Assembly: GCA_964558645.1 (NCBI GenBank)
Contig: CAZLEV010000003.1
Span: forward strand, 1-64,000
DNA: 64,000 nt
Direction of reading: 5' to 3'
Source: an uncultured archaeon
Lineage (GTDB): Archaea; Asgardarchaeota; Thorarchaeia; Thorarchaeales; Thorarchaeaceae
In this document: one piece after another, positions 5,762 through 11,223 of the stretch
Layout: each line of letters opens with the position of its first letter
Position numbering within the stretch: position 1 is the first letter of the stretch
Program-made: the position numbers and the translations under genes
Notes under the pieces: model-generated
Seen by the model: only the letters and a program-made list of their open reading frames with translations
The model's database searches: none
Told to the model about the DNA's origin: nothing

Positions 5762-7366
5762 TTGTCGATGACGAATCTCGTGAGTGAAGATAATGATTGG
5801 ATGGGTAAGCTTGATTCATGGATTGATTCTCGTTTCCATGTGGACAGAATAGCCACACCACATAGAATACTCATACTAATCATTGCAGTAGTCGTGACAA
5901 CCACAACTGTCATCCATTATCTGGCAGCCATGTTTGGCTGGACAAATCCAGGGTTCAGCTTGGATGATTCGTGGATACATCTTGAATATGCGCGCAGTAT
6001 ATTCGAGGGCCGAGCGTGGGAGTATTCTCCTGGAGTTCCTTCGACAGGGTCCACAAGCCCGTTGTGGTCGATTGTTCTGAGTCCACTATTCTTGTTCACG
6101 AGCAACTCGTTGCTTCTTGTTCTGGGTGTTCATCTGATTGCGTGGATCTTGTACACTGCAACATCGTTCCTTGCAGGCCTTGTTGTCTTGGAACACACAA
6201 ACAACCTGATGGTTTCTGCTCTTGCCATAGTGGGATTCGTGCTGGTACCGGGAAACACGTGGCTCATGCTCTCGGGAATGGAGTATCCTCTCTTTGGGTT
6301 CATTCTCATTGCTGGAATCTGGACAGCCGCACAGGACGGAGAAGCATATGATGTAGTGCTGGGGGTTCTGTGGGGCGCTGCATTTCTGGCTCGACCTGAG
6401 GGTCTGGTGCCCTTAGGACTCTGTGTTCTCGCCCGTCTTCTGGTACGGCTTGTTCGATCAGAAAACAAATCTCGTCAGCTTGGTCTGTTTGCCATGAAGA
6501 TTCCAATCGCACTGCTTATCATGCTTCCTTGGATTCTGCATTGTCTTAGCGTCACGGGCCATCCACTTCCAGACACGTTCTATGCCAAGACAGGCACTCC
6601 CACAGCGTTTGAGATTGAGGCATGGAATTCATGGTGGATATATTGGCTCAGTGTCTATTTCTTCTTAGGCATCGGTGCCATAACAGGCGTTTATACACTC
6701 AAGAATCTGAGGCCATACGTCTGGGTAGTGCCTCTGTCCTTGATTGTGCTCTACAGGCTCGTTATCCCCTATCAGGCTCTCGTCAACAACGCTAGATACC
6801 TCACTCCAGCTTTTGCCCTCCTGATGCTCTGTGCAGTGATTGGCTTATCGGGGGCTGTCTATGCGATTCTGAAGCGGTTAATACCAAGTGCTACCCTACA
6901 TCACACTGCAGTGACCTTTCTTATCGTAGGTCTTCTACTAGCTCCAACTGTCGGAACCTACAACCACCAGGCACACTTCTTCGGTAACGCGGTCAAGAAC
7001 ATAAATGAAATGCAGGTAACAATCGGTATCTGGATTAACGAGAACACGCCTTCAGATGCAGTACTGGCTATCAGTGATGTCGGCGCCATTCGTTTCTTCT
7101 CAGAGCGACAAGTCATCGATCTCTTGGGTCTTGTCACCCCGGATATAACCCACATGAACCTGACTCCGTCCCAAACCCTAGAGTATCTGCGTGATCACGG
7201 CTGTGAATATCTCGTCCTGTTCGAGGTGTGGTATACACTCTGGAAGCCTGCTCTTGGAAATGCGGCTCACCGTCTTTATACTGTGAATCTGACAGACAAT
7301 GTAATTTGCGCTCGACCAGTTATGTCCGTCTTCTGGGTGAACTGGAGCATGGTGCCTCTCTCATGA
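5762..7366 (+). CDS. GT-C-fold multi-TM glycosyltransferase (lipid-linked sugar donor)
   Basis: 'DDSWIHLEYAR', 'GSTSPLW', 'SGME', 'ARPEG', about 11 TMs, C-terminal 'DVGAIRFFS..IDLLGLVTP' domain. True start may be ATG 5801. Confidence 0.7.
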   Translation: MSMTNLVSEDNDWMGKLDSWIDSRFHVDRIATPHRILILIIAVVVTTTTVIHYLAAMFGWTNPGFSLDDSWIHLEYARSIFEGRAWEYSPGVPSTGSTSPLWSIVLSPLFLFTSNSLLLVLGVHLIAWILYTATSFLAGLVVLEHTNNLMVSALAIVGFVLVPGNTWLMLSGMEYPLFGFILIAGIWTAAQDGEAYDVVLGVLWGAAFLARPEGLVPLGLCVLARLLVRLVRSENKSRQLGLFAMKIPIALLIMLPWILHCLSVTGHPLPDTFYAKTGTPTAFEIEAWNSWWIYWLSVYFFLGIGAITGVYTLKNLRPYVWVVPLSLIVLYRLVIPYQALVNNARYLTPAFALLMLCAVIGLSGAVYAILKRLIPSATLHHTAVTFLIVGLLLAPTVGTYNHQAHFFGNAVKNINEMQVTIGIWINENTPSDAVLAISDVGAIRFFSERQVIDLLGLVTPDITHMNLTPSQTLEYLRDHGCEYLVLFEVWYTLWKPALGNAAHRLYTVNLTDNVICARPVMSVFWVNWSMVPLS

Positions 7367-7436: not shown

Positions 7437-7889
7437 TTGGACGTTAAGGAACAGATTGCCGATTACCTAGACCTTCTCGAGATGAAGCACACATGGAACG
7501 AGAAGAAAGAACGGTTTGAGTTGACATTTACTGAACGCAAGGACGAGAAACCAGCCAGCCCTTCCGCGACAGGAGATGATGTCCAGTTCAGGTATACTGT
7601 TTGTATCCAACCCACCGATAAATGGGTCCAAGTATATTGTGACGTGATTCCCCTGAAAGAAGTACCAGATGAGGTACGGGAGGGGTTGTTCCTCGATTTG
7701 CTCGCGATGAACCGTAAGTATGCCGAAGTATGCTTCGACTACCACGACGAGAGAGAGGTCATCGGAACATCACAAGAGATGATGGTACAGGGCTTTCATT
7801 TCGATAGTTTCAGGGCAGAATTCTTGGCGGTTCCTTGGGCTGTGAAGAAATTCTGGACAGAGGTCGCAGCGAAATATGGCCTTAAATGA
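7437..7889 (+). CDS. YbjN/CesT-like domain protein
   Basis: 150 aa, acidic. The 'LFLDLLAMNRKYAEVCF' helix-strand pattern is typical of the YbjN/type III chaperone fold. Confidence 0.55.
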   Translation: MDVKEQIADYLDLLEMKHTWNEKKERFELTFTERKDEKPASPSATGDDVQFRYTVCIQPTDKWVQVYCDVIPLKEVPDEVREGLFLDLLAMNRKYAEVCFDYHDEREVIGTSQEMMVQGFHFDSFRAEFLAVPWAVKKFWTEVAAKYGLK

Positions 7890-9179: not shown

Positions 9180-10430
9180 ATGTTCAGCTTCTTCAGAAGA
9201 GACCCAGAGAGCAAAGCCAAGAAGCACGTCGAGAAGGCACTTGATGAAGCTATCGAGGGGTATCCCGATTACGCGAGCAGTGAATACGAGAAGGCTGCAA
9301 GTCTATTCGTCGAAGCGGAGCAGATCGACTTCGCTATCAAGTACTACAGAGAGTCTGCATATTGCGCACTGGAATACGAAGATCACGTTCGTGCTGCCCG
9401 CATGAAGTTGGAGGCGGGAAGACTCCTTGCTCAGGACGCGCAATACCTCCAAGCAGGTTCACTCTATTCGGAGGCTGCAGACCACTTGTTTCGACAGAAG
9501 AAGCCGAGTGAGTCTACGCGTGCGTTGGCAATTGCTGCACTCTGTCACCTAGCCGCTAGGAGTTTCGATACAGCTGTTAATCTCTTCAAGAAATCAACAA
9601 AACGACTCAGCGGGTTCAGTGGTAGCCCCGGTCATGCCCACGAGCTTGCACGGATTGCTGTTGGAGTTCTGTGTGAAGGTGACGAGATTCCAGCAAAGGA
9701 AATTGACGATGCGGTTCGCCGTTTCAAACCTGATGAGAGGGAGAAGACACTAATTGAATTTGTTGTTGCCTCAGTACGACTAGCTCAGCAGACCGAAGTG
9801 GCAATAGAGTGGGCAGGAAAACCCAGAGAGAGCGTTCAGTCAAGGACCCCTCTTGAATTCGAGTTGAAATATGACTGCCCTGTTCCTGTACGAGTTATAG
9901 ATAAACGCTTCAGTTTGTCGAACAGCCTCAGTCTGGTGAAGGAGCCTGACATAGACAGTAATCTTTCCAAAACTGGTTCGTGGTTAGTTGTTGTTAATCC
10001 GGTGTTGAGCGGTGACGGGGTATTGGGTCCGATAAGACTGACACTCGAGGGTCAAGAGGTCTTGGTCAACAAACATAGCAATACCCTCCGATTTGACATA
10101 GAGCCCGCCCCATCGGATGTTGATATTCAGCTCTCGCCAGCTGATATCACCTGCGGGCTAGGGGATGAGCTAGTCTTCGACATCGAGTTGTTCAATGAAG
10201 GTCGAGGTGCTGCAAACAATGTCAATGTGGAATTGAATCTCACGCCCGGGCTAGAGATATCCATCGGAAGTGAATCGAAGTCTATCCAGTTCATAGGTGT
10301 GGGAGAGAAGATGAGACTGCAGTTCTACATCCGGGCAGTACAGGTTGGGGACCAGTCCCTAGTGGTGACAGCGAAGTCAGCAGACGGATCTGTTGACCTT
10401 GAGAGGACAGGGATTGTCCATGTTGATTAG
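9180..10430 (+). CDS. SNAP-like alpha-helical domain fused to two Ig-like (CARDB-type) domains
   Basis: Helical repeats with 'PDYASSEYEKAA', 'AALCH', 'GFSGS'. C-terminal beta-sandwich 'FDIELFNEGRGAANNVNV'. ATG 9180 has a GGAG SD; the ORF track starts at 9165. Confidence 0.6.
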   Translation: MFSFFRRDPESKAKKHVEKALDEAIEGYPDYASSEYEKAASLFVEAEQIDFAIKYYRESAYCALEYEDHVRAARMKLEAGRLLAQDAQYLQAGSLYSEAADHLFRQKKPSESTRALAIAALCHLAARSFDTAVNLFKKSTKRLSGFSGSPGHAHELARIAVGVLCEGDEIPAKEIDDAVRRFKPDEREKTLIEFVVASVRLAQQTEVAIEWAGKPRESVQSRTPLEFELKYDCPVPVRVIDKRFSLSNSLSLVKEPDIDSNLSKTGSWLVVVNPVLSGDGVLGPIRLTLEGQEVLVNKHSNTLRFDIEPAPSDVDIQLSPADITCGLGDELVFDIELFNEGRGAANNVNVELNLTPGLEISIGSESKSIQFIGVGEKMRLQFYIRAVQVGDQSLVVTAKSADGSVDLERTGIVHVD

Positions 10431-10440
10431 TATCGTGTTC

Positions 10441-11223
10441 CTATGATTCTTTCTTCTTATGCCTCTCATGCACTATGTCTAGGCAGGCACCCATGACTTC
10501 TTGGATTGTTTCTTCTTCGTTGAACGATCTGTGTATGTCCTCTGCCATCTCAAGGTGCCCCTCTGTCAGAGCCTTACTGAATGAGAGCAGGGTCTTCAAC
10601 CAGCCCCATCGAGTCTTGTCTATTATCTTCTCTGCCTTTGAAATGCTCTCGCGGGCAGTATCCTTCTCTTCGATAGTTGCATACCCCATGGCAGCAAGAG
10701 ATAGGTCAATCACTGCTCTCTCGGCCTTCCCATCTTGAAGTGCCCTCTCTGCAGCCTGATTGTACAGGTCACCCATGTTCTTAGCACATGTAAGGAAGTA
10801 CTCCCTGTTGCCGAGTCTATGGCATGCATACGCCGCCCAGAGATATGCCTGTGCAGCTGTTTCAATCATATCTTCTTCAAGTGCATACTCGGCCGCGTTC
10901 TCGAAAAGCGTCAGTGCGGTGTCATGTTCACTGACCTTTCGGTATTGGCTCGCCGCCTCGAAATATGCTCGTGCGGCGGTCTTGTGGTCGTCTTTCTCTA
11001 CGCTTGCCTCAGCGTGAATGTGATAATTCTCAGCAGCAAGTCTGGTCATGGCTATGGCCCTGTCCAAGTAGCATTCAGCAGCCTGTTTGTATTGATTGCC
11101 GGCTTGGTAGAACTTCTCTGCTTCTGCAAATTCTCCAGCCAGTCTTTCCCACTGAGAGCATTCGTCTTCCATATCGTGTTCGACCCCTGTAATATCAGCT
11201 AGACCTGTTTCCCACTGACTCAT
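10441..11223 (-). CDS. SNAP-like (alpha-SNAP/Sec17-type helical repeat) protein
   Basis: All-helical, 260 aa, with repeated 'A..Y..AA..Y' units (QAGNQYKQAAECY, TAARAYFEAASQY, TAAQAYLWAA). Confidence 0.6.
   Translation of the reverse strand: MSQWETGLADITGVEHDMEDECSQWERLAGEFAEAEKFYQAGNQYKQAAECYLDRAIAMTRLAAENYHIHAEASVEKDDHKTAARAYFEAASQYRKVSEHDTALTLFENAAEYALEEDMIETAAQAYLWAAYACHRLGNREYFLTCAKNMGDLYNQAAERALQDGKAERAVIDLSLAAMGYATIEEKDTARESISKAEKIIDKTRWGWLKTLLSFSKALTEGHLEMAEDIHRSFNEEETIQEVMGACLDIVHERHKKKES

Follow-up and report, generated by a model that had tools for sequence, protein, structure and literature searches.

To our knowledge, SNAP and NSF recycle SNAREs in every eukaryote. Does a protein encoded in an Asgard genome belong to the SNAP lineage and, if so, does it do what SNAPs do? 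The question is raised by a gene at positions 9180..10430 (+) of a 64,000-nucleotide stretch of Thorarchaeota DNA (hereafter the window; GenBank assembly GCA_964558645.1, contig CAZLEV010000003.1, positions 1 to 64,000). From the letters alone, an earlier sequence-only reading had proposed that this gene encodes a SNAP-like domain fused to tandem Ig-like domains, and that the product is a cytosolic archaeal relative of membrane-trafficking factors. Structure and profile matches agree with that proposal and make it more specific, in that the relationship is to SNAP/Sec17. The protein is real, conserved and apparently undescribed. We consider it fairly probable that it serves as a soluble cytoplasmic adaptor or scaffold, being a shortened yet true SNAP/Sec17-lineage protein that carries two DUF11/CARDB-type Ig domains.

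Domain architecture and relationship to the SNAP family

The open reading frame (ORF) spans 9165/9180-10430 (+) in the ORF list. Because approximately 100 homologue clusters (90% identity; 415-416 aa) begin at the methionine encoded at 9180, we assign the start to the ATG at that position, which gives a protein of 416 aa (416 codons plus stop). Nearly all of its close homologues are labelled Thorarchaeota (hereafter Thor). The motifs quoted in the sequence-only reading were all located in the translation, MFSFFR at residue 1, PDYASSEYEKAASLF at residue 29, AALCHL at residue 119 and SGFSGS at residue 144.

An AlphaFold2 (AF2) model built on 34 Thor sequences (predicted local distance difference test, pLDDT, 92.2; predicted template modelling score 0.76) reproduces the proposed order of helical repeats followed by two β-sandwiches. 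Ten helices occupy residues 9-204, seven of them regular 17-residue hairpin helices, and all-β domains follow at residues 206-309 and 310-416. The truncated SNAP-family helical domain (residues 1-205; 9180..9794, +) corresponds to approximately SNAP positions 93-285, as judged by Pfam, structure alignment, profiles and hhalign. It leads into a first Ig-like β-sandwich, Ig1 (residues 206-309; 9795..10106, +), delimited by DSSP strands in the model, and then into a second of the DUF11/CARDB/MG-type Ig, Ig2 (residues 310-416; 10107..10427, +), assigned from a sub-threshold Pfam DUF11 match, structure alignment and invariant columns. At the very N-terminus, a hydrophobic patch with an Asp-Pro (MFSFFRRDP, residues 1-9; 9180..9206, +) is disordered in the model, with pLDDT <50 at residues 1-5. 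A sub-cut-off Pfam DUF6435 match to residues 1-25 (21.7-23.4 bits) was set aside as reflecting no more than a short helical N-terminus.

As the sequence-only reading had stated, neither a signal peptide nor a transmembrane helix is apparent. The highest Kyte-Doolittle 19-residue mean is only 1.33, which argues against a transmembrane helix, and the short, charged N-terminus does not fit a signal peptide. With export signals absent, the product is predicted to be a soluble cytoplasmic protein.

The relationship of the helical domain to SNAPs is visible in its structure. Using VIA-align, an aligner independent of Foldseek, we compared the AF2 model with 48,161 PDB representative chains. Sec17 (9cru_G) ranked first, with Z = 17.7 and a root-mean-square deviation (rmsd) of 3.7 over 201 residues (model 1-204 on chain 49-289). 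γ-SNAP (2ifu_A) was tied with it at rank 2 (Z = 17.7, rmsd 3.1, 191 residues, chain 47-275), whereas the best non-SNAP match, the TPR domain of LGN, reached Z = 15.0 at rmsd 6.3. The match to SNAP extends through the end of the C-terminal bundle, and the predicted model shows both the twisted sheet of antiparallel helices and the globular C-terminal bundle by which we recognised the fold. By structure the domain is thus placed with SNAPs rather than with generic TPR/MalT repeats. When the whole model was searched against the PDB with Foldseek, the Ig pair determined the matches (transglutaminase barrels, hydin/ASH, S-layer proteins) and the result was uninformative on the helical domain.

Sequence profiles lead to the same family. 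Pfam SNAP (PF14938) matched the whole protein at 27.9 bits (cut-off 25; model positions about 85-232 of 282) and residues 1-205 at 31.0 bits, and was the leading family in 29 of the 34 Thor members and in 19/25 pan-Asgard N-domains. On residues 1-205, canonical TPR models stayed below threshold (TPR_12, 13.9 bits against a cut-off of 30.1). A single-sequence search of the PDB returned γ-SNAP as its sole match (E = 0.0024). We also built a pan-Asgard helical-domain profile from the Thor sequences and orthologues of Loki, Heimdall and other Asgard lineages. In the PDB this profile found Sec17 (E = 9.9e-13), γ-SNAP (6.6e-12) and α-SNAPs (3-7e-7), with a designed consensus TPR as the best non-SNAP match (2.2e-4). 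Profile positions 48-203 align with Sec17 130-285, spanning the non-TPR bundle, and an 'EGD' loop is common to both.

When the same profile was run against 1.84 billion (1.84e9) representative proteins, members of the family ranked first. Long multi-repeat TPR proteins came next, with scores that sum 4-26 stretches and a best listed stretch of at most ~150 positions. The remaining matches were proteins of 284-329 aa in which ~165-175 of the 208 positions were covered (E 1e-17 to 1e-12). Ten of these short matches were scanned, and all are canonical SNAPs by Pfam (55-279 bits); the source names of some short matches include Branchiostoma γ-SNAP and Anaeramoeba α-SNAP. Taken together, the profiles place SNAPs ahead of generic TPR proteins by ~8-10 orders of magnitude.

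The resemblances to SNAP motifs pointed out in the sequence-only reading fared unevenly. AALCHL and SGFSGS fall inside the statistically supported alignment, whereas the likeness of PDYASSEYEKAA to 'PDYDSAASEY..' of γ-SNAP represents an alternative repeat register that scores 5.1 bits and is insignificant by itself. Weak matches to MIT, RPN7, CSN4 and GET4 were set aside as TPR-like background, and a feature search of the ESM Atlas gave only sub-0.9 leads. Some database pipelines already tag members of the family with PF14938.

The helical domain is a specific, shortened SNAP relative that corresponds to approximately helices 5-14 of the 14-helix Sec17 fold, in the helix numbering of 1QQE that we take to be established. 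Of the twisted sheet the final five helices remain, and the C-terminal bundle of five helices is also kept.

Of the two β-sandwiches, Ig1 finds matches only jointly with Ig2, namely transglutaminase C-terminal barrel tandems and DUF11/CARDB tandem arrays. Ig2 scores 18.7-20.5 bits on Pfam DUF11, under the cut-off of 24.6 (15/34 members at E<0.01), and aligns with MG-type and glycosidase-accessory Ig domains (VIA-align Z 13.2-13.5, rmsd 2.0-2.5). N339, G363 and K367, the residues best conserved in the family, also lie in Ig2. We regard the Ig domains as DUF11-like by structure because, taken together, they superpose on tandem DUF11/CARDB arrays from Planctomycetes (TM 0.43-0.49). The full-length combination of SNAP with tandem Ig domains occurs in only two ESM Atlas clusters, both Asgard; the unusual domain combination noted from the sequence is real.

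Distribution and genomic context in Asgard archaea

A profile made from Thor sequences only already detected ORFs of 412-445 aa in other Asgard families. Counting a pan-Asgard profile match at E<=1e-15 as presence, we found the family in 195 of 268 Asgard genomes with a completeness of 85% or more, almost always in exactly one copy of 412-445 aa. Full-length, stop-free orthologues at this frequency place the gene far beyond chance. By genome family (here labelled f1, f2 and so on), matches were found in 56/57 genomes of f1 (Thor), in all 15 of f22 (a Heimdall family that includes a named Heimdallarchaeota genome), in 9/9 of f24 and 97/106 of f9 (both Loki), and in 6/7 of f12. Several other families that were searched gave none, for example f5 (0/21) and a family of 1.4-Mb genomes (0/4). 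Eighteen non-Thor orthologues align end to end and have the same domain order in all cases. Among the carriers are Candidatus Harpocratesius repetitus (Loki), closed genomes of 4.3 and 6.0 Mb in the Loki family, a closed Heimdallarchaeota genome and several Lokiarchaeota/Promethearchaeota metagenome-assembled genomes. The family is a fixed architecture, present in single copy across much of the Asgard phylum.

In the window, the gene sits between an AlaX-like tRNA-editing gene and a gene for HMG-CoA reductase, with a class II tRNA synthetase also nearby. At the loci of the 18 non-Thor orthologues the neighbours encode an MBL-fold hydrolase, an NTP-transferase, an AMP phosphorylase-like protein, a ferredoxin, an M24 peptidase and a SAM synthetase. 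No functional link emerges from the neighbourhoods of the Thor gene and these 18 orthologues, and an AAA ATPase adjoins none of the orthologues examined. Local synteny is visible within lineages. In one non-Thor family (L025:1994-6050 and the syntenic L021, L023, L024 and L027), the orthologue always has two same-strand neighbours, an MBL-fold hydrolase gene upstream and, downstream, a gene for a sugar-nucleotidyltransferase that carries a hexapeptide domain. The Loki-family orthologues lie between a polyferredoxin gene and an AMP-phosphorylase-like gene. All of this synteny is lineage-specific and of no obvious functional meaning. Upstream of the AlaX-like gene in the window are two co-oriented ORFs of 534 and 150 aa (5762-7366, + and 7437-7889, +) that match no Pfam family at E<=1e-5. 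Of the sequencing runs listed for this stretch, none is registered as RNA.

Convergent with the gene and 10 bp away from it lies a second gene of interest (10441..11172, -), which encodes a stand-alone SNAP-like helical protein of 243 aa counted from Met18. The first 17 codons of its ORF are probably untranslated, because homologues start at MEDEC. Pfam SNAP is its best Pfam match (28 bits), α-SNAP is the best PDB match of its profile (E = 3e-4), and the hhalign comparison with SNAPs, which covers SNAP 28-225, reaches 97.4% (E = 1.4e-11). Compared by hhalign with the family described above, it gives 80% (E = 1.4e-5). In its structural model a preference for SNAP is not separated, with Z = 13.3 for Sec17 against 12.8 for other repeat proteins. 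The gene is restricted to the Thor order, in 70/76 genomes of f1 and in the single genome of f2 (1/1); it stands tail-to-tail with the SNAP-Ig gene in nearly all f1 genomes and 7 kb away in the sister family. Like the helical domain of the larger protein, to which it has distant similarity, it is all-helical and matches SNAP best in both the Pfam and the PDB-profile comparison. Unlike that protein, it keeps the N-terminal part of SNAP, has no Ig domains and is confined to one order. It is also the more conserved of the two, with 64-72% identity across the order, and is strongly acidic (net charge -17). The cysteines C22, C51 and C247 are invariant and C134 nearly so, which may reflect a metal site or a redox feature.

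Function and alternative explanations

What the Asgard protein could do is constrained by the parts of a SNAP that it does not have. The first ~90 SNAP residues, comprising helices 1-4 and the membrane loop, are without counterpart in its ten helices, and alignments begin at approximately SNAP position 93 (hhalign) or Sec17 residue 49 (structure). The first four SNAP helices were lost, or were never present, in the Asgard family. The membrane-inserting loop of Sec17 is the helix 1-2 loop, with F21/M22 (PMC5643095). The suggestion that the N-terminal FSFF patch is the counterpart of this loop did not hold, because the loop lies in α1-α2, which the Asgard protein lacks; the patch is also missing from many Loki orthologues. 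The N-terminal pattern of methionine, hydrophobic residues, basic residues and Asp-Pro is kept in Thor, f12, f21 and Heimdall, and the role of this hydrophobic peptide may vary by lineage.

Two further features of Sec17 are affected. K159 contacts the SNARE 0-layer (PMC5643095), and at the equivalent profile position 77 of a hidden Markov model alignment the family has Glu in 12 of 25 sequences and Lys/Arg in 3 of 25. This speaks against an α-type function, while family membership remains compatible, because γ-SNAP is also charge-reversed at this position (PMC5643095). The C-terminal L291/L292 of Sec17 are needed for stimulation of Sec18 (PMC5643095). Our alignment stops at Sec17 residue 285, and in the AF2 model the last helix (186-204) passes directly into the β-strand at 206-211 of the first Ig domain, so that the Leu-Leu pair is without counterpart. 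A SNARE domain scan of this Thor genome gave nothing above cut-off.

Since the parts for membrane, SNARE and NSF work are absent, a protein-binding adaptor is the most likely role. The protein is unlikely to carry out the canonical SNAP cycle, given that it has neither the 0-layer lysine nor the membrane loop nor free leucines at its C-terminus. By analogy with SNAPs on SNARE bundles, the elongated helical surface would grip an α-helical or coiled-coil segment of a partner; the binding of huntingtin by HAP40 offers a second analogy for such client binding. The Ig pair, rigidly attached, may serve as a further binding platform, recognise a different molecule or act in assembly. A weak contact with a membrane or partner may come from the N-terminal hydrophobic peptide in Thor, Heimdall and some other lineages, and in Thorarchaeota the paralogue-like stand-alone neighbour may act in the same process.

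A more ambitious reading is that the protein is a working forerunner of the SNAP-NSF system. It would dock on the N-domain of an archaeal Cdc48-type AAA+ protein through its C-terminal bundle, perhaps helped by the Ig pair, and present SNARE-like, ESCRT-like or other coiled-coil assemblies to be taken apart at the expense of ATP. What the protein retains of SNAP is the half turned towards NSF in the 20S complex, with the C-terminal bundle and the acidic 'EGD' loop that Sec17 also has. NSF is a paralogue of Cdc48, for which this genome has two genes. A named Heimdallarchaeota genome belongs to the Heimdall family in which every searched genome carries the protein, and SNARE-like complexes are known from Heimdallarchaeaceae. 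These complexes are resistant to murine NSF; a Cdc48-like archaeal disassemblase has been hypothesised for them, the disassembling agent being explicitly left open (bioRxiv 10.64898/2026.10.19.760048). Set against this, the chain goes on into an Ig domain and so offers no counterpart of the Leu-Leu required for Sec18 stimulation, the family does not conserve the 0-layer lysine, this Thor genome yielded no SNARE domain, no examined orthologue adjoins an AAA ATPase, and the family is far more widespread than the known SNARE-like proteins. With functional residues missing, the C-terminus blocked and SNARE domains absent from the Thor genome, we regard such a working forerunner as doubtful. It is an equally tentative proposition that this archaeal family is sister or ancestral to eukaryotic SNAPs and already couples a Cdc48-type AAA+ protein to coiled-coil assemblies at membranes, such that the SNAP-NSF module would predate eukaryotes.

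The adaptor reading must itself be weighed against several observations, some of which favour an ordinary TPR scaffold whose likeness to SNAP reflects only shared TPR-clan ancestry or the convergence of hairpin repeats. The Pfam SNAP score of the whole protein is barely over threshold, and the Pfam match taken alone is weak because it is partial and because the model also fires on generic TPR proteins, both in this genome and in control bacteria and archaea. PF14938 matches occur in 4/14 control prokaryote genomes, and a generic TPR_12 protein of the same genome (107 bits on TPR_12) reaches 53 bits on Pfam SNAP, above the score of the SNAP-Ig protein. Many archaeal TPR clusters, Bathyarchaeota and methanogen families among them, carry partial SNAP annotation in the ESM Atlas. 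With the TPR background this high, part of the SNAP signal is clan-level. In hhalign, the Asgard family aligns with eukaryotic SNAPs at 99.3% (E = 3.8e-20; Asgard 14-191 to SNAP 93-269 of 295) while a generic TPR control already gives 96.6% (E = 5e-10), and in a reciprocal search with the SNAP alignment the protein is the best match in its own genome; both tests are somewhat circular, because the SNAP alignment was drawn from matches of the Asgard profile. The structural comparison uses a predicted rather than a solved structure. As to function, the proposed binding mode is an analogy, the neighbours of the 18 non-Thor orthologues are unrelated, lineage-specific housekeeping genes, and a search for longer fused forms returned only generic long TPR proteins, with no hint of a pathway.

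What decides between a SNAP relative and an ordinary TPR protein is the agreement of independent methods. The excess for SNAP amounts to eight orders of magnitude in the PDB profile search and ten in hhalign, the structural match leads by a Z gap of 2.7 at half the rmsd, the match takes in the non-TPR C-terminal bundle, and canonical TPR models remain below threshold on the domain. The TPR background is real, yet on the sequence comparisons the SNAP-specific excess over it is approximately ten orders of magnitude by hhalign. We therefore consider an ordinary TPR scaffold distinctly unlikely.

Highly improbable, finally, is a miniature tether or coat subunit, a counterpart of the large TRAPP subunits (solenoid plus ASH/Ig) or of the adaptin trunk-plus-appendage that would work with Asgard TRAPP-core or coat-like proteins: the order of fold types, solenoid then Ig-like sandwiches, is indeed shared, as the sequence-only reading had pointed out, yeast TRAPPII large subunits stand at Foldseek ranks 7, 8 and 26 and a BBSome GAE-type domain is among the matches of Ig2 (Z = 12.1), but the Foldseek alignments are gapped over >600 columns at TM 0.22-0.31, with the Ig pair driving the ranking, a Pfam scan gave no TRAPP or adaptin family match, the solenoid is specifically SNAP-like and the Ig pair is closest to bacterial DUF11/CARDB tandems.

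The genome holds other genes that touch on these subjects. Its best Pfam SNAP match (53 bits) is a canonical TPR_12 protein of 286 aa, generic TPR in type, that ends in ~20 acidic residues (L001:1339-2199, -, contig C19). The 321-aa ORF directly upstream of it (L001:2263-3228, -) has a P-loop (GxxxxGKS) and may be a small GTPase. A 665-aa ORF on contig C2 (12902-14431, +) is a long helical-repeat protein with at least three separate weak matches to the SNAP model, and it may belong to a 600-aa Thor cluster labelled SNAP-domain-containing in the ESM Atlas. Two full-length Cdc48-type ATPases of 748 and 735 aa are encoded at C6:37813-38055 and C17:45669-45920, and a third, 453-aa ORF at C5:21960-22175 has a weak CDC48_N match; none of the three is near SNAP-like genes.

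Asgard archaea have been reported to encode SNARE-like, TRAPP, COPII, adaptin, longin and small-GTPase homologues. In the literature on Asgard eukaryotic signature proteins (ESPs) that we searched (Eme 2023, the 2026 structure-based ESP papers, the trafficking ESP list of the Arf paper and the Heimdall SNARE preprint), we found no SNAP, Sec17 or NSF-attachment homologue, a listing in the supplementary tables of the main structure-based ESP paper being possible. A phylum-wide, single-copy SNAP-homologous protein is a concrete candidate for the question of how Heimdall SNARE-like complexes are disassembled, and it anchors the origin of the SNAP fold in prokaryotes. Were it a forerunner of SNAP-NSF function, the Asgard list of ESPs would be missing SNAP. 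Were it a scaffold only, the SNAP fold would still have existed in Asgard archaea in another architecture, joined to Ig domains of a kind usually found outside the cell. Experiments are feasible, since two or three Asgard strains that are cultured or have closed genomes seem to possess the gene.

Comparison with known systems

The large TRAPP subunits (TRAPPC8-11, Trs120/130) and the adaptin trunk-plus-ear resemble the Asgard protein in being cytosolic α-solenoids followed by Ig-like/ASH sandwiches. They are 2-3 times longer, however, no sequence or profile relationship to them was found in the Pfam scans, and the Asgard solenoid is of the SNAP type; we take the likeness to be one of architecture. 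DUF11/CARDB arrays (PF01345, PF07705) share the fold and the N-x-G-x-x-A-type motif of Ig2 as well as the tandem arrangement. Those arrays are secreted or surface multi-repeat proteins, whereas here exactly two domains stand behind a helical domain in what is predicted to be a cytosolic protein.

HAP40 (F8A; PDB 6X9O) is a SNAP-derived partner of huntingtin that works as a static scaffold for protein binding rather than as an adaptor of NSF (PMC7725122). It has the SNAP-type helical fold and matches the model structurally (Z = 12.1), a much weaker match than those of Sec17 and γ-SNAP; it is confined to eukaryotes and has no Ig domains.

The closest comparison is with the SNAP family itself (α-, β- and γ-SNAP, Sec17; PF14938; 1QQE, 2IFU, 9CRU). 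The Asgard protein differs from these in being archaeal and present in genomes without a recognisable SNARE or NSF, in being ~90 residues shorter at its N-terminus, without helices 1-4 and the membrane loop, and in ending in two Ig domains rather than in a free Leu-Leu or an acidic tail; about half of the Asgard sequences carry, like γ-SNAP, Glu at the position of Sec17 K159. What the two have in common is the helical fold including the C-terminal bundle, significant profile homology, the 'LC.L' and 'EGD' motifs and, as predicted for the Asgard protein, a soluble, cytosolic nature.

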